In this document: positions 8,363 to 64,000 of the stretch, in pieces
How positions within the stretch are numbered: position 1 is the stretch's first letter
Layout of the letters: every line of letters begins with the position of its first letter
The notes under the pieces: model-generated
The model's input: the letters and a program-made list of their open reading frames with translations, nothing else
What the model was told of the DNA's origin: nothing
Databases searched by the model: none
Program-made: the position numbers and the translations under genes
DNA from: Candidatus Bathyarchaeota archaeon
GTDB lineage: Archaea > Thermoproteota > Bathyarchaeia > Bathyarchaeales > Bathycorpusculaceae
Reading direction: 5' to 3'
NCBI GenBank assembly: GCA_963833575.1
Contig: CAWHXY010000004.1
Coordinates: forward strand, 736,001-800,000
Length of the DNA stretch: 64,000 bases

Positions 8363-8505
8363 TGAAAGAACAACAACAGTTTGTGGTAGCACCGGGTGTT
8401 GTTCTTTTCGTGAAAGAAGAAGGAGGACAATCGCAGAGTGCACCGTCCTCCTTCTTCTAAACTGTGAAAGAAGAAGAAACTGTGTGGGTGCACACTTCTT
8501 CTTCT
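8363..8505. repeat. Three tandem related hairpins (candidate structured ncRNA)
   Basis: Each unit starts TGAAAG, then a purine-rich arm, a loop containing GCAC and a complementary pyrimidine arm (8363-8408, 8411-8458, 8465-8505). Confidence 0.7.
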
Positions 8506-8700
8506 ACCTGTTTGGAGTTAACTGATTAGCTTTTGAGTGTTGAGGGTTTGTTTAAAACTTTGCCGACTCTGCAAAGAAGATTTTGATATTCCTTGGCTCA
8601 AAAAAGAAATAGATGGCTCTACAAGATAATTAGTGGTTTACAGAATAAATTCAGCCTGTTGGAAACATTTTTACATCGCAGACGCAATCGTTGTATCTAA

Positions 8701-8822
8701 GCCGGGGTGGCGGAGTGGTTATCGCGCCAGCCTCGAGATCTAACAAAAGAGGGCTAAGCCAAAAGGCAAGTTAGCTGGTGGGCTTCGCGCCCGCAGGGGT
8801 TCGAATCCCTTCCCCGGCGCCA
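8701..8822 (+). tRNA. tRNA-Ser(CGA) with a 35-nt intron at 37/38 (8738-8772) and encoded CCA
   Basis: GCCGGGG/CCCCGGC acceptor stem, CCAGC/GCTGG anticodon stem, CGA at 8734-8736, long variable arm, GGTTCGAATCC T-loop, BHB-like splice motif. Confidence 0.95.
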
Positions 8823-9038
8823 ATTATAGAAATAGCCATCAAATGCAAACGCGCTTAAGCGTTGGTGTTGACTGGCGTTAATTCGTTTTTAATAAGAAAA
8901 CAATCAGGTGAATAAACATTCTTTTGATTCAAGTAAGTAATTACCTATTTTGCAAGTTTTCTTTCATTGCGGTTATTCTTGCATGTATTGACAGCCTTAA
9001 CTTGCTATTTTTTCATACAAATTCGTTTTGTAAAATAA

Positions 9039-9163
9039 GGGTTTGCTGAGGCTCCGGAAAAAATCTTTTCTTTTAGGAGAAAAAGAAAAAATGCAAATTT
9101 CTTTTTTCACGATCCTATGTCACGCATCGTGAATTTTAACCCGAGCCCACTCAGCCCCAATTT
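9039..9163. repeat. Conserved structured element, copy 1 (orphan)
   Basis: Differs at only 2 positions from 24069-24193; outer stem GCTGAGGCTC/GAGCCCACTCAGC with two inner hairpins. Confidence 0.92.
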
Positions 9164-9413
9164 ACTACTAAAATAGTTAGAAACTAAAAGGGGAAATGAG
9201 TTTTTTTCAGCATTCTAATGGTCGTTACTGTAGCAAATTTCATGGTATTCTTTCCCCTTTTTCTCTTTTGCAAGGTTAGCGATATCTCTTTATAAGATTT
9301 TGCAAAGACTTGCCCTATTTAGCTATTTCATTAATCAGATAAAGCAAAACAATTAAAATAAGAGCAATTTATCACGGATCATTTTATTAACTCAAAAGTG
9401 TAAGCTTCTGGGT

Positions 9414-10118
9414 ATGGCACTCCACAAAAAGGGTCAGACTCAGAGAAAAGAAAATAATTCAATAACAAATAAACAGCAGAGAGTCTGCGAGCGGGTAATC
9501 TCTAATTTCTTAATGATGAGTGCATCAACTTTAGAAGTGCCAGTGCAAAAAGACCAGCTTACTATTGCAGCAGCACAATTTACTGAAGCTCGTGACAGCT
9601 TAAATGCGCACATAAGAATCTCTATAAAAGAAAAAAGTATAGTTTTGGAAAAAGATAACGCGCAAACAACAGTTGATAGCAAGAATGGGAAACATTCACG
9701 AAGCACAAAAACAGTCTCAAAAGAAAAGAAAACGGTTGCCAAACCCAAAATACTAAAAGAAAAGAGCAAAAAAGAAGCTACGATTCAACTCTCAGAGGCA
9801 CCTTCACAAAGTCAGTGTGAAGAAATCATAACTAAATTCTTAGCAACAAAAAGTACAGAAACGCGAACAGCAATAATTCAGCAATTTACTGCTGCAGGAA
9901 TACCGATTGCAAACACAAACACCCAAACACAAACCAATAAAAACTGCATCGTACAAAGCGTAGAACTACATTTTAGCGAAGACAGCAAAAGGTCAGCCGT
10001 ACTTGAATTCATTAAAGCACGAGACAATATGAATGCGCAGATAAAAGTTCGCTTCTCCAAGCAAGGAGTAATCTTAATCAAAGTTGAAAACTCAACAAAA
10101 ACAGTGAAAGAAAACTGA
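9414..10118 (+). CDS. Hypothetical protein with an internal two-fold repeat
   Basis: CERVISNFL..FTEARDSLNAHIRISI versus CEEIITKFL..FIKARDNMNAQIKVRF, joined by a Lys-rich linker. Confidence 0.75.
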   Translation: MALHKKGQTQRKENNSITNKQQRVCERVISNFLMMSASTLEVPVQKDQLTIAAAQFTEARDSLNAHIRISIKEKSIVLEKDNAQTTVDSKNGKHSRSTKTVSKEKKTVAKPKILKEKSKKEATIQLSEAPSQSQCEEIITKFLATKSTETRTAIIQQFTAAGIPIANTNTQTQTNKNCIVQSVELHFSEDSKRSAVLEFIKARDNMNAQIKVRFSKQGVILIKVENSTKTVKEN

Positions 10119-10240
10119 CTTTAACAACATACAGTGGATTAACTAAATTTTTAAGTTTCTTGTAACACAACTTACTCTTTGAATAATAGAAGAGTAATCA
10201 TAAACTTGATATGCAGGTAATTAGTTTCTTAAACAGTTAA

Positions 10241-10368
10241 GGGGTTTGCTGAGGCTCCGGAAAAAAAATTTTTTCTTTTAGGAGAAAAAGAAAAATGCAA
10301 ATTTCTTTCTTCACGATCCTATGTCACGTATCGTGAATTTTTAACCCGAGCCCACTCAGCCCCAATTT
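10241..10368. repeat. Conserved structured element, copy 2 (3' of beta-propeller gene 1)
   Basis: Near-identical to copies 1 and 3; about 65 bp beyond the stop codon at 10434. Confidence 0.92.
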
Positions 10369-10392
10369 TTGCTTAAACTGTTTTTAAAGACT

Positions 10393-10425
10393 AAAAAAAG
10401 AAAAGGGAAAGTTGTTTCCATTTTT
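10393..10425 (-). terminator. Hairpin plus U-tract after beta-propeller gene 1
   Basis: Minus strand reads AAAAATGGAAA-CAAC-TTTCCCTTTT followed by CTTTTTTT. Confidence 0.5.
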
Positions 10426-10433
10426 GCTTCACT

Positions 10434-13073
10434 TTATTGTCGTTTTCTGAGCAGTAGCATCGCGAGAACAGCGCCGATAATGATTATGATAATTATCGTT
10501 GCTATTCCTAAGCTCATGATGTATGACTGGGTTGATGCCAAGCTTATCGGTGTAGCTGTTGGTGCTGCTGTTGCTGCGGTGGTTGCGGTGAGATGTGTTT
10601 CAGAGTATGATGGATAGTACCCGTTTGTGCCTGCGAAAGTAGCATAAATTGTGTAGCTGCCTGGAATTGTGGGTGCCCATGTTAAGCTGTAGCTGCCGCT
10701 TGCGTCGGTTGTTGCGCTTCCGATGGCATAGTGGTTGCCGTTAGAGTCTAAGACTGCGAGCTGCACTGGAACTCCTGTGAAGTTTGTTGGTTCAGGTTGT
10801 TGTTGGTAAACATAGCCCATCCATTCACGCATGCTAGCGTCAGATGATACTGGAACTCCGTTTGGAAAATTACCAGCTACCTGTGTTTGCTTTGAGCCTG
10901 CGGCGATGTCTGTTACTGTGCCTTGTATGACTACGTTGGTTCCTGTATTCACGGTTGTAAGTGGTGCTTGGACTGTGGTTTGACTTGGGCCTCTGCCTAC
11001 AACGTAGATTTGGTTGTCATAGCCGTTGAACCACGTGTTGTAGCCGTCTGCCATAGCGTAGCTGAAGACCAAGAATTCACCCGTGTATCCTGAGATTGTC
11101 CAGATTTCTGCTCCGGTTGTAGCGTTGATTGCGCGGTGCAATCCTCCTTTGAATAGTGGTGATTCAGGTGTGTGTTCTGTTGTAACGAGGTAGACTACTC
11201 CGCTGCCGATAGCGTTAACGAATGTTGGATAGTGAGCGAAAGGTGTTTCTAGTCCTGAATTTGTGCTGTTGCCTTCGCCGCCGTTACCGTATGTCCATAG
11301 AAGAGTGCCAGTCTTTGTATCATAGCAGTAGACTATTCCAGCGTAAGCGCTGACGTACATGTTGCCATAACCGAATCCGTTAGCTAAACTGCCTGATGCT
11401 GGGCTGCCATAGTAGTCAAGGTATGCTTGAGCTGCAGTTGGACCCCAAAGCTTTGCACCTGTATCCAAGCTATATCCTACGTACTGCGAAGTTTCCCTAT
11501 AGTTTTCGGTGAAGACGCGGTTTACTGGGTCAATCCCTGCTGCTAGGACAGTGATATTTCCTGCTGGTGGGTTAAGGGTTTCATGCCATATTATCGAACC
11601 GAGACTGCCGCTGCTTTGGGCAATGTTGATTGTGAAGTATGTGTATGGAGTCCAGCTTGCTGTCCCCATGAAGGTAGTGCCTATTGATGGTAGAGAGCCA
11701 GTGTAACCAAGCAGTATATCATTGGTTGCTCCGAGTTCAGTTACAGGGGCTGCAGTGTTCAGGTATGGTATGGAAACGTTAAAGTCGAACATTCTTGGAT
11801 CTGCTCCGTTAGTGATAGGTGGAATGACAGCAGGTGATGTTGATGCACCATTGTATTGACCAGTCCACAGTCGGGATGAGTTCCATTCTTGCAGATAGTA
11901 TTTTGGAGCGGTTGGAGTGCCAAGGTTGTTCAAGGTTAGTATTATGTGTTCACCGTTTGGACCGAGTATAGTTGTGCCTGAAGGAACGTTAGATACGTTG
12001 AACATTGGGTCGCCTGTGTAAGCATCAAAAGCTTGCCAAGATGACGTGAAAAGAATTGGTGGGTAAACTCCGTGTTGGTTAGAGTCTTGGACATCATAAA
12101 TGTAGGCGAATGACAGTGCAGGTACGTCGGTTCGAGACCAAATGAGTTGTCCTGTTTGCAAATTCACGCAGTCAGTTGGTCCGGTGCTGGCGCCGTTGAA
12201 TGATATTGGTTCAGTGTAGTACAAATATCCGTCAACAATTATTGGATTTTGGTATCTTTGATTGTACGCGGACCCCTCGAAGTATGAGTCTGCCACGATT
12301 GCAGTTTGGTTTCCTCCAACAATACCGCCCATTTGCAGGGGCTTGGTCCACATAACGTGGCTGGTAAGAGAGCCTACTAGGTCTCCTGCTCCGGCATATT
12401 GTTCACCGTTTCCTCCCATGTTAAAAGTATTAGCAAAGCCATAGTATCCTGGCGCACCGGTACCTAGCCAGTTTGATGAAATTGAGTACCAGTTGGTGTT
12501 ATATTGGTATATTGGTCGTGTCCAGTAGTTTGTTGGAAGAGGAGCTAATGGGTAATTGGAAATTGGTGAATTTTGAACGTTGAGAGTTGTCGAAGCACTG
12601 CTGGCTAAATAAGTGTCATTAGTGTATGCGCTTGGTCCAAAAGAGAAGGTGATAAATGACATAACGGGCTCAGTCCATGTGTATACCATTCCTGGGAAAC
12701 TGAAGGTAAGAGTGTACGTGCCAGTTTGGGTAGGCGTGAAGAAATAGTCCTGTGCTGATGTTGAATCCTGTACAATAGGCCAAGTTTGTGTTGTATTTGT
12801 ACCGTCAGGCGCAGTAATGATGAGTTTGTAGTTCTGGAATCGAATATCATTAGCTATTACTGCTCCATCTGGAACCAAGTTAAGCCACATGATAACTTCC
12901 ACTGATTGACCTGTGCCGACTGGGTTTGGTGAAGCATTAATGTAAGCGTAAGTTGGAATCTGCCAAGCAGGTGTGTGTGCGCTGGTAGATGGTAATAGCA
13001 TGACTGATGCCATCATTGAGATTGTTAAGAAGATAGCGATCGCAATAGATTTGGTTTTTAAATTTCTAGACAT
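10434..13073 (-). CDS. Secreted, C-terminally membrane-anchored PQQ-like beta-propeller surface protein (paralogue 1, 879 aa from ATG 13073)
   Basis: Signal peptide ending TSA|HTPAW, repeated TGxxxW blade motifs, Ig-like C-domain, PTATP linker, TM helix plus RKRQ tail; AGGAG RBS at 13085-13089. Confidence 0.88.
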   Translation of the reverse strand: MSRNLKTKSIAIAIFLTISMMASVMLLPSTSAHTPAWQIPTYAYINASPNPVGTGQSVEVIMWLNLVPDGAVIANDIRFQNYKLIITAPDGTNTTQTWPIVQDSTSAQDYFFTPTQTGTYTLTFSFPGMVYTWTEPVMSFITFSFGPSAYTNDTYLASSASTTLNVQNSPISNYPLAPLPTNYWTRPIYQYNTNWYSISSNWLGTGAPGYYGFANTFNMGGNGEQYAGAGDLVGSLTSHVMWTKPLQMGGIVGGNQTAIVADSYFEGSAYNQRYQNPIIVDGYLYYTEPISFNGASTGPTDCVNLQTGQLIWSRTDVPALSFAYIYDVQDSNQHGVYPPILFTSSWQAFDAYTGDPMFNVSNVPSGTTILGPNGEHIILTLNNLGTPTAPKYYLQEWNSSRLWTGQYNGASTSPAVIPPITNGADPRMFDFNVSIPYLNTAAPVTELGATNDILLGYTGSLPSIGTTFMGTASWTPYTYFTINIAQSSGSLGSIIWHETLNPPAGNITVLAAGIDPVNRVFTENYRETSQYVGYSLDTGAKLWGPTAAQAYLDYYGSPASGSLANGFGYGNMYVSAYAGIVYCYDTKTGTLLWTYGNGGEGNSTNSGLETPFAHYPTFVNAIGSGVVYLVTTEHTPESPLFKGGLHRAINATTGAEIWTISGYTGEFLVFSYAMADGYNTWFNGYDNQIYVVGRGPSQTTVQAPLTTVNTGTNVVIQGTVTDIAAGSKQTQVAGNFPNGVPVSSDASMREWMGYVYQQQPEPTNFTGVPVQLAVLDSNGNHYAIGSATTDASGSYSLTWAPTIPGSYTIYATFAGTNGYYPSYSETHLTATTAATAAPTATPISLASTQSYIMSLGIATIIIIIIIGAVLAMLLLRKRQ

Positions 13074-13252
13074 TTTTTTGTTTTCTCCTTTTTTCGATGC
13101 AAAGAGATTCAGGGTGTACATATTTAAAACTTTATAAAAACTTAGAATTTCCTCAAAAAGAATGCAAATCTAATAGTTAAAATGCATTTTTATAAGTTAT
13201 TGTAAAAAAACCATAACAAAAATCCGTAACACCAATTATGTGACAATACACG

Positions 13253-14296
13253 ATGAATTTAAATATAATGAAAAAGTACCATGAACTCAAACGAGGGATA
13301 ATAGTCCTAAACGAACCTGTTAGCGCAGTTCAGGCAAAAATTCTCAAAGAGTTGCTAGCAGATGGCCGCAAAACTGAAAACGAAATAGCCAAAAAAATCA
13401 GCCAAAAAAAAGAAGATGTTAAAAAGAATTTTGCTAAAATGCAAGAAAATGGAATAATCACGGGTGCAACAATACACATTAACTACAAAAAATTTGGCTA
13501 TAAGGCTGTTGCTCACATTCTAATCAATGTTGATCCGAAACAAGAAGATCAGCTAATTGAATGCCTGAAAAAAATGCCAGAGATCTATTCCTTCTATAGC
13601 AGAGGGATCAAAGGAAACATAGACGTTGTTACAACCCTCAAAACTCTTGAACAATTAAACGAAATTAAGGACAATATCAAAAGAGATTTTTCAATTTTAG
13701 AAATGAAAACCGCAATCTGGACAGACGTAAAAGAAATGAACGAAAACTTGGCAATAATTCCAGAGAATAGGAAAAACAAAATTCAAACAGATTATCTTCA
13801 AAGCAAGTCGCAAATAACCAGTAATTCTCAGAATATCGTTTTGGATAAGATCGACCAGAAAATTGCGGATAAATTGTCCGAGAATGGCCGATTGTCAATG
13901 GAGATCTTGGGCAAAGAATTAGATATTGCCCCTGAAATGGCCAAGAGAAGATATGAAAAACTCAAGAAGAATGGCCTCCTAAAGGTGACAATTCAAGTTA
14001 ACCCTACCAAAATAGGATACCAAGCCTTATGCGTCTTTTTCATCACAACTTCGAACGAAAACACATTTTTAATCATTAACAGAATCGGCAGAATACATGA
14101 CATAATAAGCATAATGAAAACGACAGGGGACTATGATCTTCAAATATACGCAATGATACAGGATCTCGATCAATTACTTTCTATTCGAGAAGAACTAGGC
14201 AAAATTCCTGGTATAATGAGAATGGACACAGAAATATTGCGGTTAGACAGATTGCAGAAATGGCCAAGCCCACGCCAGTACACATCAACTTTTTGA
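13253..14296 (+). CDS. Tandem double-domain Lrp/AsnC regulator
   Basis: Two HTH plus effector-domain units (KILKELLADGR and DKIDQKIADKLSENGR), TTGDYDL, C-terminus WPSPRQYTSTF. Confidence 0.9.
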   Translation: MNLNIMKKYHELKRGIIVLNEPVSAVQAKILKELLADGRKTENEIAKKISQKKEDVKKNFAKMQENGIITGATIHINYKKFGYKAVAHILINVDPKQEDQLIECLKKMPEIYSFYSRGIKGNIDVVTTLKTLEQLNEIKDNIKRDFSILEMKTAIWTDVKEMNENLAIIPENRKNKIQTDYLQSKSQITSNSQNIVLDKIDQKIADKLSENGRLSMEILGKELDIAPEMAKRRYEKLKKNGLLKVTIQVNPTKIGYQALCVFFITTSNENTFLIINRIGRIHDIISIMKTTGDYDLQIYAMIQDLDQLLSIREELGKIPGIMRMDTEILRLDRLQKWPSPRQYTSTF

Positions 14297-14420
14297 TTAA
14301 ATCAACCAAAATAGCTAAGAATTTTGAAAAATAGTAATTTCATCTGAAAAAACAAGTAAAACAATAAGAAATCTTAAATTTCATGAATTATCAAAAGTTA
14401 GACAAAAGGGTAAAATTCGC

Positions 14421-15404
14421 GTGCATAAAATCAACGAACTTGATTCACAAATACTAAAAAAACTACTACAAGACGGGCGACGGGGCTATAACGAAATAGC
14501 TGAAGAACACAGAATTTCAGAAAACAAAGTTTGGAAGCGCTGCAGAGCAATGGAGCAAAAAGGCATAATTACTGGAGCAAGCGTTCAGATGAATTTTGGT
14601 CATTTTGGATTCGATGCACTTGTAACTTTGTTAATAAGTGTTGAAGCACAACAAATAGAAAAAGCTATGGAAACCATAAGTCAAGTAACTGACGTAAGAG
14701 CTTATCGGCAGTATAACAGCGTTTATAATATTCGAGCAGTAGCAACTCTCAAGGACCTAAACGAGTTAGATCATTTTAAGCAATTAATCAAACGAAAACT
14801 TCCCACGTTAGGTTTAAAATCTTATATTTGGACAGGGGTCAGAAATATTCCTGAAAACTTAAACCTGACCAATTCTTCCAATGCTTATGACGAAAACATT
14901 GAGCGAAATCAAAGCAACACAATCTCTATGCAAAATGAAGGATACCTAATTGATGAGTTGGACAAACTAATAGTTAACAAACTCACATCAGACGGGGAAA
15001 TGTCTTTTACCCGAATTGCCCAAGAAATGAAATTGTCAACGGACACAGTTTTGAAAAGATACTATAAGCTTAGAAAAAGCGGATCAATAAAAGTTTCAAT
15101 CCAAATTAATCCAAACAAAATTGGTTATAAATCGATCTTGGATTTTAATGTGGCTTTTACAACGCCCGGTAATTTCTCAGATGCGGTGATTGAATCATTG
15201 GCAAGAATACCAGACGTAATCATCATCACAAAAACTAGCGGCGACTTCGATTTGCAAGTGACAGCCATGATAAGAGATATTCCGCAATCTTTCACTATTC
15301 AAGATCAGATATCGAGAATTTACGGAATCACGAAAATTGAAACTAGCGCTAGAAAAATCCCCGACAAATGGCCGACGCCACAACAGTATATATCAACATT
15401 CTAA
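14421..15404 (+). CDS. Tandem double-domain Lrp/AsnC regulator
   Basis: LDSQILKKLLQDGR and DELDKLIVNKL HTHs, TSGDFDL, C-terminus WPTPQQYISTF. Confidence 0.9.
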   Translation: MHKINELDSQILKKLLQDGRRGYNEIAEEHRISENKVWKRCRAMEQKGIITGASVQMNFGHFGFDALVTLLISVEAQQIEKAMETISQVTDVRAYRQYNSVYNIRAVATLKDLNELDHFKQLIKRKLPTLGLKSYIWTGVRNIPENLNLTNSSNAYDENIERNQSNTISMQNEGYLIDELDKLIVNKLTSDGEMSFTRIAQEMKLSTDTVLKRYYKLRKSGSIKVSIQINPNKIGYKSILDFNVAFTTPGNFSDAVIESLARIPDVIIITKTSGDFDLQVTAMIRDIPQSFTIQDQISRIYGITKIETSARKIPDKWPTPQQYISTF

Positions 15405-15548
15405 ATAAGCATTTTTTCCAAAATAATTACTTTATTTACAGAGACAAATCATTTTGCTCCTAGGTTGTTGAGAAAATATTTTACCTTTTTTAGAAGCCCA
15501 TTAAGAATATTCTCGAAATAAAGCCACATAAAAATCTTAAGCGTAGTA

Positions 15549-15659
15549 GTGGTTTGCTTAGGCTCTTGAGTTGTTCCTTAGGAGAAAACGAGCAAAGGCA
15601 AATGTTCTATCATGATTGCAAACTATTATGATTAAGTCAAAGCCAACTGAGCCTCAATT
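15549..15659. repeat. Conserved structured element, diverged copy 4 (orphan)
   Basis: GGTTTGCTTAGGCTC...TTAGGAGAAAA...GCAAAT...AGCCAACTGAGCCTCAATT keeps the same order of landmarks and stems. Confidence 0.75.
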
Positions 15660-15936
15660 CGTCCCTATTATGCGTTTAAGAACTGAAAAAAAGCGAAATA
15701 TTGGTTCTTGTTTAGAGTCAATACTCGGAAAATTTTTTCAGAATAATAGTAAAGAAACTAACCAGGGCCTACTTTTTAAGCAGACGTGTTTCCAATAATT
15801 GGGAACATCAAAAAAGAGAAATCGCAAGTTCATCGGGCATTATTATTAATTAAGATTTTTTTAGTCCAGTCGGTAAATTTGGGCAAGCGGCTGAGAAGCT
15901 TATTATTTAAGAATAGAATTAAATTCCGTGAGCTAA

Positions 15937-16413
15937 ATGGATGGTATCGTAGAAATAGATGATACTGATGAAAAGATTTTACATATATTGATCGAAGATG
16001 CGCATACAAGTTTAAAGGATATTGCGAAGGAATGCAATGTATCGTCCGTGTCTGTTTTAAATAGAATTAAGCGTTTGAAAAACCTTGGAGTGATTACGGG
16101 GGCAACACTCTTCACTGACCTTAGCTTAGTAGGGTTTCACATCGTTGCTACAATTGGAATGGAAACAGACTCAAATTCAGATGAAATCATTAGCTACTTC
16201 AAGCAAAATACATACTTGATCGAGCCAGCGACAAGTGTTGGTGAATATGACTTATGCGCTCTAATCTACGCCGAAAACATTTCGAACTTAAATGAAAAAA
16301 CTGAAGCAGTTAGAAAGCGATTTGGTATAAGAAAAGTAATAGTTAATGTTTGGTCAGGTATACCGCACATCACTTTTGAGAATATTGATCTGAACCCATT
16401 AAAAAAAGGTTGA
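15937..16413 (+). CDS. Lrp/AsnC regulator (resembles N-half of the double-domain paralogues)
   Basis: IDDTDEKILHILIEDA HTH, GVITGAT and VGEYDL. Confidence 0.88.
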   Translation: MDGIVEIDDTDEKILHILIEDAHTSLKDIAKECNVSSVSVLNRIKRLKNLGVITGATLFTDLSLVGFHIVATIGMETDSNSDEIISYFKQNTYLIEPATSVGEYDLCALIYAENISNLNEKTEAVRKRFGIRKVIVNVWSGIPHITFENIDLNPLKKG

Positions 16414-16416
16414 ATC

Positions 16417-16899
16417 ATGGATAAGATAGATTACCTAATATTTAGTGAACTGTTGAAAGACGCTTCTCTTTCATATGTTAAGATTTCACATAAATTAGGC
16501 ATCTCATCGTACACAGTCAGGAGACACTATGAAAAAATGAAAAAAGAAGGAGCAATCCAAAAATGCATCGTGTCTATTGACCTTTCAAAATTAGGCTATC
16601 AGGGAAAAGCATTATTATTAATCACTGTAGCTCCGAACAGCAATAAATCTGACACATTAGCTTACCTTAAGAAAATTAGAAATATTATGGTTATTACAGA
16701 AATAATTGGACCGTATGATATTATTGCAATTGCCCCCATTACGGACCTAAAAAATATTCAAACACTGGTTAAAGAGGTAAGAGAGGCCCCTTGTTTGCAA
16801 AGAGTTGAAATAGCATGTATAGATGACACGCATTTCCCAATAGGACCGAATTTTAACACTATACTTAGTCAAAGATGTTGCGCACTAGCAACAAAATGA
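16417..16899 (+). CDS. Lrp/AsnC regulator (resembles C-half of the double-domain paralogues)
   Basis: MDKIDYLIFSELLKDA HTH, SKLGYQ and IGPYDI. Confidence 0.88.
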   Translation: MDKIDYLIFSELLKDASLSYVKISHKLGISSYTVRRHYEKMKKEGAIQKCIVSIDLSKLGYQGKALLLITVAPNSNKSDTLAYLKKIRNIMVITEIIGPYDIIAIAPITDLKNIQTLVKEVREAPCLQRVEIACIDDTHFPIGPNFNTILSQRCCALATK

Positions 16900-17192
16900 G
16901 GCAAACTTGATATAGCAGTCAAAAGAAAAAACAAAAAACAATTTCTCTGGATTACGTCAGGTCTTTGATAAATATTCTTAGAGTTTGCTAAGAGAAAAAA
17001 ACGCAATTCTTGAAGGTAAGTATCTAAAAGTTGGGAAAAGATCCGGAAAATTTTGCAGGATAGGTTATTCCTCTTCGAAAAGCAGCTAAAATATGTTAGA
17101 GCGTACCATATTTTTAACTCAGTTTTCCTAACTTAATACTTTTAAATCAAAATGAGTCTCAAGCTGTGTATTTAGGTTAATTTTATATCTAA

Positions 17193-17417
17193 ATGAAGAA
17201 TAGTCTATTTATGAGTGGATTTAGCGAAATGGAGAAGATTGCTGAAGGCATCAGTGACTTTGGTGATTTTAGAGCGATTTTGTTCAAAACGTCAGATGGT
17301 CGTCATTTTGTGCGGTTTCTGCCCTTTGAGAACTCGGAAAAACCTCACACGCAGTGGCTTCCTGGTGATGACTATTTGGAATGGCTCAGATGTTGTGATA
17401 AATGTTCTGCAACGTGA
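17193..17417 (+). CDS. Small hypothetical protein with C-terminal CxxC
   Basis: 74-aa ORF ending WLRCCDKC; no family recognised. Confidence 0.4.
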   Translation: MKNSLFMSGFSEMEKIAEGISDFGDFRAILFKTSDGRHFVRFLPFENSEKPHTQWLPGDDYLEWLRCCDKCSAT

Positions 17418-17487
17418 ATTACTCTAATCCAGGGTTAAGTGAGGATATGTAAGAAAGAGTTGTGGACATAACCCCTTTTGCGGATGT

Positions 17488-19341
17488 CTATTCTGTCATG
17501 TAAGTGATGTCATCCCATGGGTGCCTATAGAGGCCCTGCTTTAGCCGTTTTTGGTCCAAAAAGTGGGCTGTCATTCCTATGGTTCTGCCCACAACAAACA
17601 ACCCGTTTAATGCACCCATTTTAATATACTCGTCGGCTTCCTGCTTGGTCATCTCGGTTCTTAGCATGTCAACGAAGCAAATGCCAATGCACCCATCAAC
17701 ATTGAGGATGAGATTGTCTTTCTTGGCTGTTGTCAGCTTTTCAACTTCAAGTGCATAGTCCAAAAGCGGGGTAGCTTTGAAGTGTTTCTTGGCGTATTCT
17801 TTCAGTATAGTTACTCTCTTGTCAGGGTTGTTTACGCTCTTTACCAAGTGCCCGATGCCTTGGATGTTTTCACCCTTTTTCTTCATTTCCTCGACGAACT
17901 CTGCTGGCGTTAAGCCTCTGTCAAAAGCGTCAGAAAAACTCTGAGCAGCTCCGTCGATTGCGCCTCCGAACCGTGGACCGATAGTTAGCATACCGCTTGC
18001 CACTGAGGACATCAAGTCTTTTCCTGCTCTTGCTGCGACTATAGCGTTGTGGGCACCTGACACTGCAGGTCCATGGTCAGCCGTCACCATGATGGTCATC
18101 TCTATAAACTTTGAGGCATATGAGGGGAACTGACGTTTGAACCACAGTATGCTCAATACGCCACCAATTCCTATGTCCTGCTTGAAAACCTCGGAAATTG
18201 GCATCTTACCGTAAAGCAGTTCTTCTCCTCTGTCGTCAGAAATTGTGCATATAAAGTTAGAGGGCTTTCTGATAATCCCTGCTTTCAATGCCTTGGCATA
18301 ATCCATCGGAATCTTCGGTACTGGTGGTTCTGGCTTTGGCTTGATGATGCCCTTTTGAACCAAGTTTTCGTATGTCTCCCTTATTTTTTCGTCGTAATCG
18401 TCGTAGGAGTTTGGAACAATTGCTCCAGCTGCTTTTAGAGCCAAGTTCTTTGCATCTGCAGTTTCCACTTCTGAACCTGCTTTTGCGCCTGCGTGGCCGA
18501 ACTGAACCTCAGTTTTGAATGCCTTGGAACAAGTGCCGGTTACCCAAATAACCAGTGGCTTTGTTATCTTCTTTTTCTTTATAGCTTCAGCGATTTCGTA
18601 TTCTCCCCTGCCCCCTACTTCGCCCAAGCACACCAGCATCTTAATTTCTGGAATAGACTCGAACCTAAGAAGATGATCTAAAAGTGTTGATCCAGGGTGT
18701 GTATCTCCGCCAATTGCAATGCCCTCGTACAGTCCATCAGTGTTTCTAGCAATAATGTTATACGCCTCATTGCTTAGACCACCTGATTTAGAAACAAAAC
18801 CAACAGACCCTGGTCTATGAAGCTTCGACTCTATTATGTTTTCGATTGTACCGCCTGCATTTCCAATTTTAAAGCACCCAGCTTTTATTCCTCCAACAGT
18901 CGCTGGACCGATGATGACCTTTCCAAGTGCTTTCGATTTGGCTGTGAGCAACTTCATTCGCCGCTCCGGCACTCCCTCGGCTATTATCACAATAGTGCGA
19001 AGTTGCGGTATAGCCAACGCTTCATCGGTTGAAGGTGCGGCTGACCTGAAAGAAGCAAAATTAATCATCACATCAGCATTAGGATGCATCATCGCCGCTT
19101 TTTCAATCGTTTTGTAAATGGGGATTAAAATTTCGCGCGTGCCAAAGAAGCACTTTGAGAAGCTATCTGAACCTGTTGGGTTGATGATTGCTGCTACAGA
19201 CGGGGTCTCTCGACCTGAGGCATAGTCAAAATCTAGCATCCGTTGTGTTGCTGCCACTTGGTTGTTATAAATGAATGATTGGGTTTTTTTGGTGAACAAC
19301 TCACTTGAGGGAGTTTGCGCGATTGATTCTTTGTTTGACAT
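17488..19341 (-). CDS. aclA: ATP-citrate lyase large subunit (CoA-binding, phospho-His and citryl-CoA lyase domains)
   Basis: [39 protein letters not shown] and LNVDG. Confidence 0.95.
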
Positions 19342-20655
19342 TTACTTTGCTCCCTTCAACGCCATTGAAACAATCTTGGTCATATGAGTTTCTGGTCCGA
19401 AAACTTCAATTGGCACACCTATTTTTTCGCCAAGCGCTCTCATCTGACACAAGCCCTCCAGATAGTTGGGTCCGCCCCTTCGGACGTATATCTTGACCTT
19501 ATTCTCTTGGAGATTCTTTTGGTGTTCTTTAAGGGCTTTGATTATGCCTTTGAAGGTACTTGCGACATCAGTAAAGTTTGCTATGCCACCACCTATTATC
19601 AGGAATTTGCCTTTCGGGTTTACCTTTCTGGTCATGAGGTCTAGTATTGTATTGGCGTAGAGATAGGTGAACTCCTCGCTTGGGTCACCTGAATATTCCC
19701 CGTAATTAGCCAGTTCGGTTATGTAGCCTAGATCAGTAATCGTATCAGCATAGATGACAGAGGCACCACCGCCTGCAACCATGGTCCATACTCTTCCTTC
19801 CGGATTGAGGATGGTTAGTTTCAATGAGGCCCCAGTTTTTGAGTCTAAGTCTTCGATGTAAGCTTCTTCTTCAGTCGGAGTTCTCCCAAAAGGAACCGGA
19901 AACTCTATTTTGCCCCACTTCTCGCCGCTCTCAAATTCGGCACAGCTGTCCAGCTTGGATGCCAAATCTAGTGGGATAACCGAATCCTCTGTTACTACAA
20001 TCGGGTTCATTTCCAAATAGGTGAAGTTTAGATCAGCATAAAATTTGAATAATGCTTCTGTGAATCCTGAAAGGCACTTACTGTGGGTAGCTGCAACTTT
20101 TTCTAGTAGTTTTTTCTCGATTTCTGCAATGCTTGGAAACTTGCCGATGGGCACCTCCAAACGCAATGCTTTAGCGTCAACGTCCCCGACGTCTACACCG
20201 CCTTCAGGGTAGAACAGGATAGTATCTCCATCTCTAGTCGACATTATAGCGAGGTAATATTCATCCTGATTTTTGTGCGGTACCAGTGGCTCGATAATAA
20301 AATGTGTCAGTTGACCAATTGTCCCCTTGTCCGCGGGATTTCCGTTGGCATCAAATTTACCGTAGATAGTTATCGGTCCTTTTGACTTCTCTTCTATCCA
20401 TGCTTTGGCTTGGTTGTAGTTTGCGCCTGCAAGAATTAGGTTATTCTTTCCTCTACGCTTTATCAATTGGTCGGGTTTTACAACCAACTTCTCTGTTGTT
20501 AGCCACTTATTTTCATTCAGCAGCTTTGTCATATCGGTTTGTGGTCCAACCGTGACAATCTTATCAGAAATATTGTACTCTCCGTGTGAGTAATCTTTCA
20601 AGAGACGGGCTAGCATGCGCTTACCGTCTGCTTCTCTGATTGCTTTATGCGCCAT
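19342..20655 (-). CDS. aclB: ATP-citrate lyase small subunit (ATP-grasp and citrate-binding domains)
   Basis: MAHKAIREADGK, KPDQLIKRRGK, WTMVAGGGAS, NYGEYSG, GGGIANFT and RRGGPNY. Confidence 0.95.
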   Translation of the reverse strand: MAHKAIREADGKRMLARLLKDYSHGEYNISDKIVTVGPQTDMTKLLNENKWLTTEKLVVKPDQLIKRRGKNNLILAGANYNQAKAWIEEKSKGPITIYGKFDANGNPADKGTIGQLTHFIIEPLVPHKNQDEYYLAIMSTRDGDTILFYPEGGVDVGDVDAKALRLEVPIGKFPSIAEIEKKLLEKVAATHSKCLSGFTEALFKFYADLNFTYLEMNPIVVTEDSVIPLDLASKLDSCAEFESGEKWGKIEFPVPFGRTPTEEEAYIEDLDSKTGASLKLTILNPEGRVWTMVAGGGASVIYADTITDLGYITELANYGEYSGDPSEEFTYLYANTILDLMTRKVNPKGKFLIIGGGIANFTDVASTFKGIIKALKEHQKNLQENKVKIYVRRGGPNYLEGLCQMRALGEKIGVPIEVFGPETHMTKIVSMALKGAK

Positions 20656-20667
20656 TATATTCTCCCA

Positions 20668-21891
20668 CTATTCAAGCTTCTGTTTGAGCCTTTTGGCAAC
20701 CTCAGCAATAAACTCCTCGGTGTAAACTTGTCTATTGTTTGGGTCCGACGTTGCAACAATCATCAAGTCACCGGTCATAATACCGCTTTCAACAGTCTCA
20801 AGAGCCGCATCCTCCAACTTTTTCGCGAAATCCACAACTTCCGGCGTCTTATCCAACTCACCTCTCTTTCGCAAGCAGCCAGTCCAAGCAAATATTAAAG
20901 CCATGGAGTTACTTGAGGTCTTTTCACCTTTCAAGTATTTGTAATAGTGTTTCTGAACCGTGCCATGAGAAGCTTCGAACTCATAAAATCCTTGAGGGCT
21001 AACAAGCACAGAAGTCATCATTGCCAAACTACCATAAGCTGAGCCCAACATATCGCTCATAACATCGCCATCATAGTTTTTGCAAGCCCAAAGCATACCG
21101 CCTTCCGTCTTCATTATTCGTGCAACAGCATCATCAATTAAAGTAAAGAAATACTCGAGTCCTGCTTCTTTGAATTTGGATTTCCAGTTTTTCTGGTATT
21201 CTTCTTCGAATATCTTACGAAAATCCGCATCATATGTCTTAGAAATTGTATCCTTAGCGCCAAACCAAACATGAAGTTTCTGGTCATATGCATAGGTGAA
21301 GCAGGCTTTGGCAAAGCTGGAAATTGATTTATCAGTATTATGAATGCCTTGAATGACTCCTGGACCTTTGAAATCTTGAATTGTTCCTCGCCAAAGTTCC
21401 TTGCCCGCAGCGTTTGTGAATACCATCTCGGCCTTTCCTTCTTCTGGAACCCTGTACTCACAGTTCTTGTAAACATCTCCATAGGCGTGTCTTCCTATGT
21501 GGATTGGTTTCTTCCAAGATCTAACTGCCGGAGGAATATTTTTCACAAGGATCGGTGCCCTGAAAACCGTGCCATCTAAAGCTGCTCTAATGGTGCCGTT
21601 TGGGCTACTCCATTCCTTCTTCAAATTATATTCTTTAACGCGGTCTTTGTTTGGAGTGATAGTGGCGCATTTTACTCCGACACCGTATTTCTTTATGGCG
21701 TCTGCTGCTTCTAAGGTTATTTTGTCGTCAGTTTCGTCTCTCTTTTTGAGTTGAAGGTCATAATATGCCGTGTTCATGTCGAGAAAGGGTAAAAGGAGCT
21801 GATCTTTAACCATCTTCCACATTATTCTCGTCATTTCGTCTCCGTCTATTTCGACGATCGGTGTCTTCACATTTATTTTGCTCAATCTCAT
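20668..21891 (-). CDS. icd: NADP-dependent isocitrate dehydrogenase, subfamily II (eukaryote-like)
   Basis: [35 protein letters not shown] and EASHGTV. Confidence 0.95.
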
Positions 21892-21902
21892 TCCTCAATC
21901 AT

Positions 21903-23834
21903 TTATTTTACTGTATAGGAGAGCAGTCCGCCCTCATAGAGAATGTCTTTTTGTCTCTGGGAAAGGTTGTAGGTAAGCTCTATTTGGAGATTCTTGGTCT
22001 TGTTTACAAGGATGACTGGTTCATTATTCTGCAGTTTCTTCTTGATGCCTGGAATTTCAATCTCATCTCCTTGAGCTATTTTGTCGTAGTCAGCCATATT
22101 CTTGAAGGATAGCGAGATTATTCCGAAGTTAACAAGGTTGGCTGCATGGATTCGCTCTACCGACTTGGCTATGATCGCTTTGACGCCTAAGTACATTGGG
22201 CACAATGCAGCGTGCTCTCTAGAACTTCCTTGACCATATGATTCGCCAGCAACTATTACGATGTGCAATCCTTTCTTTTTTGCTTCCATTGCTCTCTTGG
22301 GGAATGCTGGGTCAATCGGCTCGAAAACAAATTCTGAATATTTGGGCACGTTGGATCTGTATTTTAGCCTTGCTCCAGCCGGCATTATATGGTCTGTAGT
22401 AATTTTGTCTCCGACTTTTATTCCGACAATGCCCTTTATTTGCTCGGGCATTTTGTCGTTTACTGGTGGAGTGCCTATGTTTGGTCCCCTAGCGATTTCA
22501 ATGTTTTTGTCAGATTCTTTGGGGAATATGAACATTGAATCATCAATTAGAAATTTCGTTGGCATGTTAACATTTGGGTATTCGAAGCCTGCATTTCTTG
22601 GATCAGTAAGTTTACCTGTGATTGCAGCTATAGCTGCGACTTCAGGGCTTACGAGGTAGACCTGAGCGTCTGAGGTTCCGCTTCTTCCTTCGAAGTTTCT
22701 GTTGCTTGTTCTGAGCGATACGCCGGTAGTCTTGGGACTTTGGCTGTTGCCGATACAGAATCCGCATGCTGCCTCTAGAAGCCTGGCGCCAGAATCTAGT
22801 AGGTCAAGGATGTAACCGTCTCTTGTCGCCATCTGCAGAACTTGTCTCGAGCCGGGTGCAACTCCAAATGATACGTCAGGATGGACTTTTTTACCCTTTA
22901 TTATCTTTGCTACTGTGGCTATTTCTTTGTAGGAGGAATTTGTGCAGGAACCGACCATTATTTGATCCACTTTAACATCTTTCAGTTCGCTTACTTTGAC
23001 AATGTTGCCTGGGCTGTGAGGTGCTGCAGCAAGTGGTTCAAGCGTACTAAGATCAAGATCGATTACTTTGTCGTACTCAGCGTCGTCGTCAGCCTTTAGC
23101 TCAATCCAATCTGCTTCTCGACCCTGTGCTTTAAGAAACCTCTTTGTCTCCTCATCTGAGGGAAATATAGAAGTGGTAACACCCATTTCGGCGCCCATGT
23201 TTGTGATTGTTGCTCTTTCTGGAACCGTAAGGTTCTGCACTCCAGGTCCAGTGTACTCTATTATGACACCGACATTGCCTTTTACTGTGAATATGTCCAG
23301 CATCTTCAAGACAACGTCTTTGGCGCTGACCCAGGGCTGAAGACTTCCCCTTAGATTTATCTTGTAAACTTTTGGGCATGTTATGTAGAATTCTCCGCCG
23401 CCCATTGCAACAGCTACATCCAGACCTCCTGCTCCAATAGCTACCATACCGATGCCTCCGCCGGTGGTCGTGTGACTGTCAGATCCAAGGAGCGTCTTTC
23501 CAGGCTTACCAAATCTCTCCAGATGGACTTGATGGCATATTCCGTTACCTGCCTTTGAATAAATTACGCCATATTTGGCCGCTACTGTCTGAAGGTACTT
23601 ATGATCATCAGCGTTTTCGTAACCCACTTGGATGGTGTTGTGGTCAACATAGCTAACAGAAAGCTCTGTTTTCACCTGTTTGAGTCCCATTGCTTCAAAC
23701 TGCAGGTATGCCATGGTTCCTGTGGCGTCCTGAGTGAGAGTTTGATCAATCTTTATGCCTATCTCGTTTCCAGGTATGTATTCTCCGACCACCAGATGTT
23801 TTTCTATTATTTTTCGAGTAAGGGACTTTCCCAT
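21903..23834 (-). CDS. Aconitate hydratase (short single-chain type)
   Basis: QDATG, GICHQVH, GSDSHT, GSCTN, CGFCIG and GSSREHAA. Confidence 0.93.
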   Translation of the reverse strand: MGKSLTRKIIEKHLVVGEYIPGNEIGIKIDQTLTQDATGTMAYLQFEAMGLKQVKTELSVSYVDHNTIQVGYENADDHKYLQTVAAKYGVIYSKAGNGICHQVHLERFGKPGKTLLGSDSHTTTGGGIGMVAIGAGGLDVAVAMGGGEFYITCPKVYKINLRGSLQPWVSAKDVVLKMLDIFTVKGNVGVIIEYTGPGVQNLTVPERATITNMGAEMGVTTSIFPSDEETKRFLKAQGREADWIELKADDDAEYDKVIDLDLSTLEPLAAAPHSPGNIVKVSELKDVKVDQIMVGSCTNSSYKEIATVAKIIKGKKVHPDVSFGVAPGSRQVLQMATRDGYILDLLDSGARLLEAACGFCIGNSQSPKTTGVSLRTSNRNFEGRSGTSDAQVYLVSPEVAAIAAITGKLTDPRNAGFEYPNVNMPTKFLIDDSMFIFPKESDKNIEIARGPNIGTPPVNDKMPEQIKGIVGIKVGDKITTDHIMPAGARLKYRSNVPKYSEFVFEPIDPAFPKRAMEAKKKGLHIVIVAGESYGQGSSREHAALCPMYLGVKAIIAKSVERIHAANLVNFGIISLSFKNMADYDKIAQGDEIEIPGIKKKLQNNEPVILVNKTKNLQIELTYNLSQRQKDILYEGGLLSYTVK

Positions 23835-24068
23835 AAATGTCTCATCCTATGGAAAGACTTGTTTTTCTTATGTGCATATAAAGGTTGTCAATTTATGCGA
23901 CAACCAGCAATCTATGTTTACGTAAACAGTCTTAATTTAGAATAGTGTCTAAACAACAATACAAAAAGAAACTAAATTTCAAACCAAACTATTTTTGACT
24001 TCGCCCACTTAAGAATATAGTAGCGATCATGATAAAACGCTGCTAGGATGATCGATCTTTGAGCAGTA

Positions 24069-24193
24069 GGGTTTGCTGAGGCTCTGGCAAAAATCTTTTC
24101 TTTTAGGAGAAAAAGAAAAAATGCAAATTTCTTTTTTCACGATCCTATGTCACGCATCGTGAATTTTAACCCGAGCCCACTCAGCCCCAATTT
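24069..24193. repeat. Conserved structured element, copy 3 (3' of beta-propeller gene 2)
   Basis: Near-identical to copy 1; about 60 bp beyond the stop codon at 24252. Confidence 0.92.
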
Positions 24194-24215
24194 GCTCCTA
24201 AAATAGTTTGAGACT

Positions 24216-24250
24216 AAAAAAGGGGAAATGCTAGTTTAGTTTAGCATTTT
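24216..24250 (-). terminator. Hairpin plus U-tract after beta-propeller gene 2
   Basis: Minus strand reads AAATGCTA-AACTAAAC-TAGCATTT followed by CCCCTTTTTT. Confidence 0.55.
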
Positions 24251-24251
24251 T

Positions 24252-26905: not shown

Positions 26906-27112
26906 ATTTTTTCTTCCTATATTTCTGTGAGAGTCTCATTAGCAACCAAGGTGTATTTAGATTTTTCGTGTTTTAGAAAAAAAGCCCTAAAAAAGGAGAA
27001 AATATACGACATAAAAGTATACTTTCAAGATTATTTGCTACCACTAATGCTTAGTTTATATTTTCTTGATTTTGAGAATACTTAATTAGGCAGTTTAAAA
27101 AGAAAAGGACTA

Positions 27113-63974: not shown

Positions 63975-64000
63975 GAAAATGGGCTGAGTAGGCTCTGGTT
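63975..64000. repeat. Conserved structured element, copy 5, inverted and truncated by the window end
   Basis: GGGCTGAGTAGGCTCTGGTT versus GGGCTGAGTGGGCTCGGGTT (reverse complement of copies 1-3). Confidence 0.65.

Follow-up and report, generated by a model that had tools for sequence, protein, structure and literature searches.

Placement of the element behind surface-protein genes

The stretch of DNA analysed here, referred to as the window, comprises 64,000 nucleotides (nt) of a bathyarchaeal contig (CAWHXY010000004.1, positions 736,001 to 800,000) and belongs to a genome of 2.75 Mb in 8 contigs with 41% G+C, which we call G000 and of which contigs C1, C4, C6 and C7 are mentioned below. The window contains two genes for paralogous beta-propeller surface proteins, a terminator-like motif behind each of them, and five copies of a short dispersed element that is tied to the 3' ends of genes of this family (Table 1). 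The core of the element is an inverted copy of the region in which translation of the family's genes starts, and it is this likeness that the analysis below is mainly concerned with.

Table 1. Element copies, terminator-like motifs and surface-protein genes in the window. The strand listed for an element copy is the gene-sense (anti-start-site) strand; the "+ reading" of copies 1-4 is that of the window + strand.
Feature	Coordinates	Strand	Remarks
Element copy 1	9039-9158	-	start-site-like core 9071-9102 on +; 127.6 bits with the covariance model; no adjacent family gene
Element copy 2	10242-10363	-	core 10276-10306 on +; 117.3 bits; 63-65 bp past the stop of gene 10434-13121
Element copy 3	24069-24188	-	core 24101-24132 on +; 123.7 bits; 53-58 bp past the stop of gene 24252-26729
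Element copy 4	15550-15656	-	diverged; 81.5 bits; no family gene adjoining; degraded terminator-like motif after it
Element copy 5	63981-64000	+	orientation opposite to that of copies 1-4; truncated by the end of the window; full copy at G000:C4:799972-800092, 126 bits
Terminator-like motif	10389-10411	-	in gene sense a C-rich stretch, a T run and AGTC; between the stop of 10434-13121 and copy 2
Terminator-like motif	24212-24228	-	+ strand reads GACTAAAAAAGGGGAAA; between the stop of 24252-26729 and copy 3
Surface-protein paralog	10434-13121	-	895 aa; PQQ_2 beta-propeller, Ig-like domains, C-terminal membrane helix, basic tail
Surface-protein paralog	24252-26729	-	825 aa as open frame; family-type start region upstream in another frame

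An earlier note, drawn up from the letters of the window alone, had reported copies at 9039, 10241 and 24069, a diverged copy at 15549 and an inverted partial copy at 63975-64000, and all five could be located in the sequence; a repeat scan also clusters 9038-9189, 10242-10393 and 24068-24219 together. When copy 1 was compared to G000 by BLAST, 26 matches were retrieved in total, with copy 3 being 98% identical over 129 nt and copy 2 95% identical. Iterated nhmmer searches raised the count to 27 full-length copies, 104-135 nt long and located on C1, C4, C6 and C7, plus two partial hits; the full-length copies exceed chance expectation by far (E 1e-11 to 1e-31). Identity among copies inside one genome ranges from 68% to 100%. 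The near identity of copies 1 and 3 beside clearly diverged genes, which the note had pointed out, holds up as well, since their 98% compares with 73-82% in the ungapped repeat blocks of the genes and 59% identity of the proteins.

Open frames were called crudely around each of the 27 copies, and 18 copies turned out to lie 50-66 base pairs (bp) past the stop codon of a gene for an 825-1074 amino acid (aa) PQQ-propeller surface-protein paralog. These paralogs match PQQ_2 beta-propeller and Ig-like domains, and each gene next to an element encodes a C-terminal membrane helix followed by a basic tail. The family counts 31 paralogs in G000 (30 retrieved by BLASTP, one recognized from its context), 18 with an element and 13 without, and all 31 share a terminator-like motif just past the stop codon, a C-rich stretch and then a T run, whether the element is present or absent. 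For the two window copies to which a distance of 60-65 bp past the stop codon had been assigned, we measured 63-65 bp for copy 2 (stop at 10434) and 53-58 bp for copy 3 (stop at 24252). The orientation relative to the gene is indeed fixed, but it is not the same orientation as had been stated: the surface genes of the window lie on the - strand, and the reading strand of the element is therefore opposite to the gene, as is the case for 18/18 gene-linked copies.

Among the nine copies without a family gene, one is the second of a tandem pair, and copies 1 and 4 precede terminator remnants; directly after copy 1, at 9159-9260, the remnant comprises the terminator and the 3' end of a family gene. 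The tandem doublet is found at G000:C4:949040-949449 (949040 with 949338), where two copies in the same orientation lie 170 bp apart behind one gene, and in another genome (L044) three hits in the same orientation occur at 613-1530, within about 800-900 nt. Truncated copies at G000:C4:104008, C6:200298 and C7:458491 consist of the 5' arm alone or of the 5' arm plus the start-site-like core.

We would like to note that the gene at 24252-26729 may have a broken 5' end. At 26730-26930 (-), about 170-200 nt upstream of its first ATG and in another frame, there is a family-type start with a signal-peptide-like N-terminus (MKNLKTIAIAILL...), and a short CA repeat (about 26,810-26,822) lies between this out-of-frame N-terminus and the first ATG. 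The cause may be a genuine frameshift, phase variation or an error in the assembly.

A scan of Bathyarchaeia genomes with a covariance model, which the earlier note had proposed, was run using a model built from the 27 G000 copies. Within the genus, 49 of the 60 other genomes yield between 1 and 26 matches each. In an even draw from the class, it matches 5/13 genomes of the home family (three further genera) and 2/4 genomes of a second family in the same order (f7, one genus), while 0/123 sampled genomes from other families match, a sample that does not prove absence. At 36 of 75 homolog-encoding loci in other Bathyarchaeia metagenome-assembled genomes (MAGs), the element lies just downstream of the gene and is always inverted, although one of these 36 hits is only partial and several of the 75 loci stop at a contig edge. 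In a one-contig genome of the second family (G040), 14 of the 15 family loci that were fetched carry the element, with the same place and orientation as in G000. The link to the 3' ends of beta-propeller surface genes that had been noticed in the window holds and extends, in one orientation, to 18/27 copies in the genome, 36/75 loci in other MAGs and 14/15 loci in the second family.

Fold of the element and its likeness to the family start region

The fold was examined in 102 matches (96 distinct) aligned to the covariance model, a model-fitted alignment that favours structure; for the outer stem the alignment is unambiguous, as its arms are nearly invariant in sequence. Changes on both sides were found for 21 of the 24 modelled pairs. 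Overall, 91.0% of cells are paired compared to 84.1% in shuffled alignments, and the covariation score is 0.184 compared to 0.096, a value that none of the 500 shuffles reached. When the partner was slid by 1-3 columns, pairing fell to 39-53%. The element is bounded by imperfect terminal inverted repeats, 19-nt arms (GGGTTTGCTGAGGCTCTGG and CCAGAGCCTACTCAGCCCC) that pair with two bulges, so that the outer stem consists of three segments split by two 3-nt bulges on opposite strands. Inside it, the stem of an inner hairpin covaries (GAGCA/TGCTC, ACGCA/TGCGT, GAGCG/CGCTC, AGAG/CTCT, A-run/T-run) around a loop kept as AATGCAAA, and a hairpin CACGA..TCGTG is conserved and covarying. When RNAalifold was used alone, the outer stem was all that emerged.

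The fold drawn in the earlier note was thus right in part, as its bulged outer stem and its CACGA..TCGTG hairpin both covary, whereas its hairpin TTTTCTTTT-AGGAG-AAAAAGAAAA is confined to copies with a T-rich insert. The Rfam search that it had named left the element without a family: across the whole window at the gathering score the sole match is a tRNA at 8701-8819, and at E values up to 1 the region 8650-10450 yielded nothing beyond 17-22 bits, against thresholds of 42-100. The covariation supports a folded nucleic acid.

The conserved single-stranded core of the element is an inverted copy of the family start region, including the Shine-Dalgarno (SD) sequence, the spacer, the ATG and the next few bases. 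Inspection of the 31 paralogs showed that many of their 5' ends read TTTAGGAGAAAAGAAAA-ATG-CAA-ATT, which equals TTTAGGAGAAAAAGAAAAAATGCAAATT of the element, and the likeness covers about 30 nt, from roughly position -22 to position +12 relative to the start codon. The pattern GGAGRA-N4-12-ATGCAAA occurs at 28 sites in G000, namely 17 elements, 6 family starts, 1 other long gene and 4 sites elsewhere; the shorter AGGAGAARA occurs at 145 sites, including 23 elements, 17 family starts and 17 positions before other frames of at least 100 aa. We also ranked the 5' regions of 2398 predicted genes by their alignment score to the element interiors, and the top 12 were all family genes, as were 16 of the top 20. 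The median score of the family was 16.5, compared to a median of 10.5 and a 99th percentile of 15.0 for other genes.

Since the element is inverted with respect to the gene, a transcript in the direction of the gene would carry the complement of the SD sequence, spacer, start codon and next bases, a span that is about the footprint of an initiating ribosome. We rejected the possibility of a small peptide starting at the ATG of the element: the frames range from 8 to 104 aa and are not conserved. Of the 96 distinct copies, 19 have no ATG at the start position, and 16 have neither ATG, GTG nor TTG.

Core and start region clearly change jointly across lineages. In the second family (G040), the sequence GAAGGTGAAAAA-ATG-AAAAA at the family starts has its counterpart in element cores with TTGAAGGTGAAAAAATGAAAAAA and its variants, and a form GAAGGAATGGAAAA-ATG-AAAT is found in one gene's start and in another gene's element. 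In a further genome (G181), a form AAGGAAGGA is found in start regions and elements alike. When equal-sized samples of starts were used, G000 elements scored 16.9 on G000 starts versus 9.9 on G040 starts, and G040 elements scored 17.2 on G040 starts versus 13.2 on G000 starts.

Strand, proposed mode of action and alternatives

Several features hint at the strand in gene sense. All of the conserved context, i.e., the spacer and the terminator, lies on the side of the gene, and on the other flank nearly all of the 60 positions stay at or below 0.3 bits. In predicted ensembles (65 of the 96 sequences, those with a locatable motif), the anti-SD segment is the most exposed one, with a mean unpaired probability of 0.87 in gene sense versus 0.55 for the SD-like segment on the opposite strand, where the ATG-like segment reaches 0.70; the overall mean is 0.39 in gene sense and 0.41 on the opposite strand. 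The minimum-energy fold of the window copies places the anti-SD in a hexaloop in gene sense, and the gene-sense strand is predicted to fold more stably, at -42.7 kcal/mol (z -4.1) versus -34 kcal/mol (z -3.2) for the opposite strand. Single transitions at the ATG point the same way, as 8 of them (ACG, ATA) would retain a G-U pair of the gene-sense RNA with an mRNA AUG and 1 (GTG) would lose it. Apart from these hints, a candidate promoter motif on the gene-sense reading, [CT]T[AT]AAAA, peaks 24-26 nt before the stem in only 25/90 copies, which is too near for a start outside the stem.

Our preferred reading, to which we give a probability of about 0.4, is that the element is a gene-sense RNA module, either a read-through 3' untranslated region (UTR) or a processed small RNA, that pairs in an anti-SD/anti-AUG manner with mRNAs of the family, mainly in trans. 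It builds on what is established, namely a repeat with a fixed place and orientation, a covarying fold, a specific likeness to the start region and a joint change of core and start region. Transcription of the element, the strand transcribed, pairing with mRNA and an effect on translation would have to be added. An RNA of about 120 nt would arise from transcription that continues past the short T-run terminator of the gene or begins within the conserved spacer. This RNA would be closed by the long bulged stem, and its interior would display the exact complement of the family start region. The anti-SD and anti-spacer would lie in an unpaired junction (the hexaloop in window copies), and a covarying hairpin would expose the anti-start codon in its loop. 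By pairing with the mRNA starts of the family, the RNA would block ribosome binding, mostly on other paralogs in trans, and the outcome may be a common negative control of, or a hierarchy across, about 30 paralogous surface genes. Among the options that the earlier note had placed side by side, a 3'-UTR or non-coding RNA module gains most; that the core is an inverted start region had not been noticed there. A recombination or mobile role at the DNA level is retained because of the uncoupled phylogenies discussed below.

Several observations weigh against the preferred reading. Read-through must be assumed because the T-run terminator of the gene sits between the stop codon and the element. 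The start region of an element's own gene ranks on average 19.9 among the 31 paralogs, where 16 would be expected, and thus a purely cis model of pairing between 5' and 3' ends is unsupported. The nine copies (of 27) that lack an adjacent family gene reach scores as high as those of gene-linked copies. That core and start region have changed together is seen at essentially one deep split, the starts of G000, G106 and G181 being too alike to discriminate. Element similarity and neighbour-protein similarity are uncorrelated (Spearman 0.01; 171 pairs from 19 element-gene pairs), with elements that are 93% identical beside proteins that are 36% identical, and 90% beside 23%. Wobble pairs are balanced, with 82 G-T cells on the window + reading versus 80 A-C cells that would correspond to G-U if the other strand were read. 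On the opposite-strand reading, the element is followed by a T run (at least 5 T in 34/92 copies, and at least 4 T within 20 nt in 52/92 versus 31/92 at the equivalent place of the other strand), which would look like the terminator of a convergent small RNA. Lastly, the sole RNA run found, a peat metatranscriptome stored as contigs and holding 0.06 of the query words, was compared with 8500-27000; its contigs cover the gene at 10442-13079 and leave the elements uncovered, although they carry no strand and are uninformative on transcription of the element.

The likeness of those contigs over 10442-13079 is 90-99%, and parts of 24252-26729 are covered as well; a relative close to the gene at 10434-13121 is present in the peat RNA library. 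In some of the contigs, pieces of both window paralogs are joined, and these contigs probably represent chimeras or further members of the family.

The start regions of element-less paralogs tend to match the elements better (median 19, versus 15.25-15.75 for paralogs with an element; p=0.047, and 0.07 after wider windows), a weak and non-significant trend. As the own gene is not the best match and the element-less paralogs tend to match better, an action in trans within the family seems the more plausible form of the preferred reading.

The T run is also at the centre of an alternative that we consider unlikely, in which the element is an independent gene on the opposite strand that points at the 3' end of the surface gene and ends at the T run. 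Its small RNA would mimic the start region and act as a decoy or sponge, titrating whatever binds there, be it ribosomal subunits, a repressor protein or an antisense RNA. Conservation in the flanks is highest immediately 3' of the stem on this strand, where the sequence reads A-TTTTTT, and a T run behind a stable stem is reminiscent of a terminator. Both the SD-like and the ATG-like segments are also fairly open in the ensembles given above. However, no conserved promoter-like signal was detected in the 60 positions upstream of the 5' end on this strand (at most 0.3 bits, except for the base beside the stem), and each of the 27 copies would need a promoter in an unrelated flank. The 16 copies that lack any of the three start codons also speak against a decoy of the start region. 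Pairing itself gives a divided answer: in 12 sequences from one clade, the central helix is saved by G-U pairs on the opposite strand only, and in 12 others, the inner stem keeps its pairing on the gene-sense strand only.

Because element and gene phylogenies are uncoupled, the element may instead act as DNA, either as a non-autonomous mobile repeat or as a structured recombination site among the 3' flanks of the family that folds as single-stranded DNA, with the start-region copy serving as a crossover or homology patch for inversion or conversion and having no RNA function. We consider this rather unlikely. Sequence likeness does end sharply at the ends of the outer stem, which form 19-nt imperfect terminal inverted repeats, and the similarity of elements is independent of the neighbouring proteins; tandem doublets and triplets occur, three truncated remnants of the 5' arm are present, and the equal frequency of G-T and A-C mismatches is what would be expected without selection on either RNA strand. 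Nevertheless, the earlier note's observation that there is no target duplication was borne out in 26 copies: over 56 boundary choices, identical flanks were found in at best 6/26 copies at 2 nt, 3/26 at 3 nt and at most 2/26 at 4 nt or more. Nor was any parent found in G000, the sole genome searched for a longer autonomous element with the same ends. Outside the 27 copies, this genome has 9 solo matches to the 5' arm (at most 3 mismatches), of which three are the truncated remnants and none encloses a gene, and no solo 3' arms were found in it. In two taxonomic families, moreover, the insertions are not dispersed but keep to a single gene family with the same distance and orientation, and an inverted state, with the 5' arm of the element before the gene start, was seen in none of the 31 G000 genes or the 75 loci elsewhere. 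Copies within a genome are not homogenised, and the inner hairpins combine compensatory changes in their stems with conserved loops, which indicates that a fold presenting specific bases is under selection. The flanks of orthologous loci are too diverged to be aligned for an empty-site comparison. Either the unit moves by a route that is specific for site and orientation, or its interior converts between invariant arms.

Finally, the element could be a functionless by-product left over from segmental duplications of genes with their flanks, as the paralogs and their terminators have clearly been duplicated and copy 1 precedes the remnant of a gene's 3' end. This is very improbable, since the elements are far better conserved than the adjoining proteins (median nucleotide identity of 64% with gaps counted, versus a median protein identity of 37%), and they are conserved across genera and two families, covary and are independent of the gene tree.

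Neighbouring genes and comparison with known systems

Other features of the window lie close to the element copies. About 220 bp before copy 1 there is a tRNA gene at 8701-8819 (+) that has a long variable arm and whose anticodon loop is interrupted by about 39 nt; it scores 47.7 bits with Rfam and is not called by ARAGORN, and its intron shows no clean bulge-helix-bulge (BHB) motif in a simple minimum-free-energy fold and thus offers no local reference for such motifs. Exactly between copies 1 and 2, and not on the strand of the surface genes, a 234-aa open frame at 9414-10118 (+) without a Pfam match encodes a sequence that is rich in lysine and glutamine and internally repeat-like. Four consecutive genes of the AsnC/Lrp type with helix-turn-helix (HTH) domains, two of them of double length with two HTH units, lie at 13253-16899 (+) and occupy the interval from the surface gene to copy 4 and beyond copy 4. 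A citrate-cycle cluster follows at 17488-23834 (-), with two ATP-citrate-lyase-like genes, an isocitrate/isopropylmalate dehydrogenase and an aconitase, and its upstream region abuts copy 3; its content suggests a reductive citrate cycle.

Bathyarchaeia form an abundant, uncultured group, of whose post-transcriptional gene regulation almost nothing is known to our knowledge. Our literature search turned up no description of the element or of the regulation of the gene family in Bathyarchaeia, although part of that search was too unspecific to count. As it stands, the element is a concrete and testable case: structured and conserved, it accompanies the majority of the genes in a large surface-protein family. 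If the preferred reading is true, translation would be controlled across a whole family from a dispersed repeat, which would merge 3'-UTR regulators, anti-SD small RNAs and mobile repeats, and may explain the choice among about 30 surface-protein variants in an archaeon. With the covariance model and the start-region rule, annotation of the family and of its regulation can be extended to hundreds of MAGs from peat and soil. Should the RNA model prove wrong, it would still have to be explained why a repeat follows the start region of its host family from lineage to lineage.

The closest parallel to the proposed action is the 3' UTR of icaR in Staphylococcus aureus, which is complementary to the ribosome-binding region of its own mRNA, the pairing blocking the formation of the initiation complex and creating an RNase III substrate (PMC3868564). 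In both cases, the complement of a ribosome-binding region lies behind the coding sequence. The icaR case concerns a single bacterial gene whose short motif acts on the mRNA to which it belongs, whereas the element is a folded unit of about 120 nt in many copies among about 30 archaeal paralogs. It also covers the SD sequence, spacer and start codon (about 30 nt) and shows no preference for its own gene, and its transcription and pairing are putative.

Bacterial trans-acting small RNAs show anti-SD seeds in hairpin loops, and some small RNAs are derived from 3' UTRs. The element is similar to these in two respects, as a stable scaffold exposes its seed in loops or unpaired junctions and as it immediately follows a protein-coding gene. 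Unlike them, it is present in 27 copies per genome, lies behind members of the target family themselves, is archaeal and has no Rfam match.

As a repeat, the element is reminiscent of a miniature inverted-repeat transposable element (MITE), as it is small, non-coding and multi-copy, with terminal inverted repeats, sharp ends, similarity that is uncoupled from its neighbours, and truncated remnants. In contrast to a MITE, it has no target duplication, no autonomous parent in G000 and no gene-independent insertion: it sits in one place and one orientation behind one family in many species, its hairpins covary and its core tracks the starts. The attC sites of integrons are imperfect palindromes of about 60-140 nt that are bulged, conserved at the ends and variable inside, with a fixed orientation at the 3' ends of genes. 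The element shares the bulged imperfect palindrome, the fixed orientation at the 3' end of a gene and a similarity that is uncoupled from the gene. Its copies, however, are dispersed on C1, C4, C6 and C7, mostly single and without cassette arrays; the end motifs of attC were not seen in it by eye, and an integrase was not searched for.

A further comparison concerns archaeal BHB introns, which occur in a 5' UTR and in the cbf5 mRNA and are cut by the tRNA splicing endonuclease and circularised (PMC7714728). The same source defines the BHB by a central helix of exactly 4 bp and describes a two-subunit endonuclease, mainly of TACK archaea, that accepts varied bulge lengths (PMC7714728). The gene-sense outer stem of the element, GGG-GCUGA-[GUA]-GGCUCUGG ... 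CCAGAGCC-UCAGC-[AAA]-CCC, has a BHB-like, two-fold symmetric layout, in which a short central helix is followed on either strand by a 3-nt bulge at its 3' side, with an outer and an inner helix flanking this arrangement. In the second family (G040), both bulges are AAA and the outer helix has 9 bp. The bulge topology that we treat as canonical in this comparison is our own derivation from tRNA numbering. A canonical BHB was rejected: the central helix (GCUGA/UCAGC) has 5 bp and not 4, its fifth G-C pair (13-217) is kept in 88/96 sequences, and a 4-bp register would need a 4-nt bulge. G000 encodes two splicing-endonuclease paralogs (C7:351219-351458 and C6:37209-37463), and we regard it as a quite improbable variant that read-through transcripts of an expressed paralog are cut at the two symmetric bulges by the two-subunit splicing endonuclease, the excised piece of about 105 nt being ligated into a stable circular RNA that silences other paralogs in trans through its exposed anti-SD and anti-AUG loops. 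Its targets would be especially those paralogs that have a canonical start region and no element; expression of about 30 surface proteins would be mutually exclusive or hierarchical, and the unit would spread as a mobile intron-like module from one 3' flank of the family to another.

The complementarity to the ribosome-binding region of an mRNA that characterizes icaR is present in the element, and so are the terminal inverted repeats of a MITE. The element thus combines known kinds, i.e., anti-SD regulators from 3' UTRs or small RNAs and structured dispersed repeats, and what is unusual is that a repeat mirrors, and evolves with, the start region of its host family.

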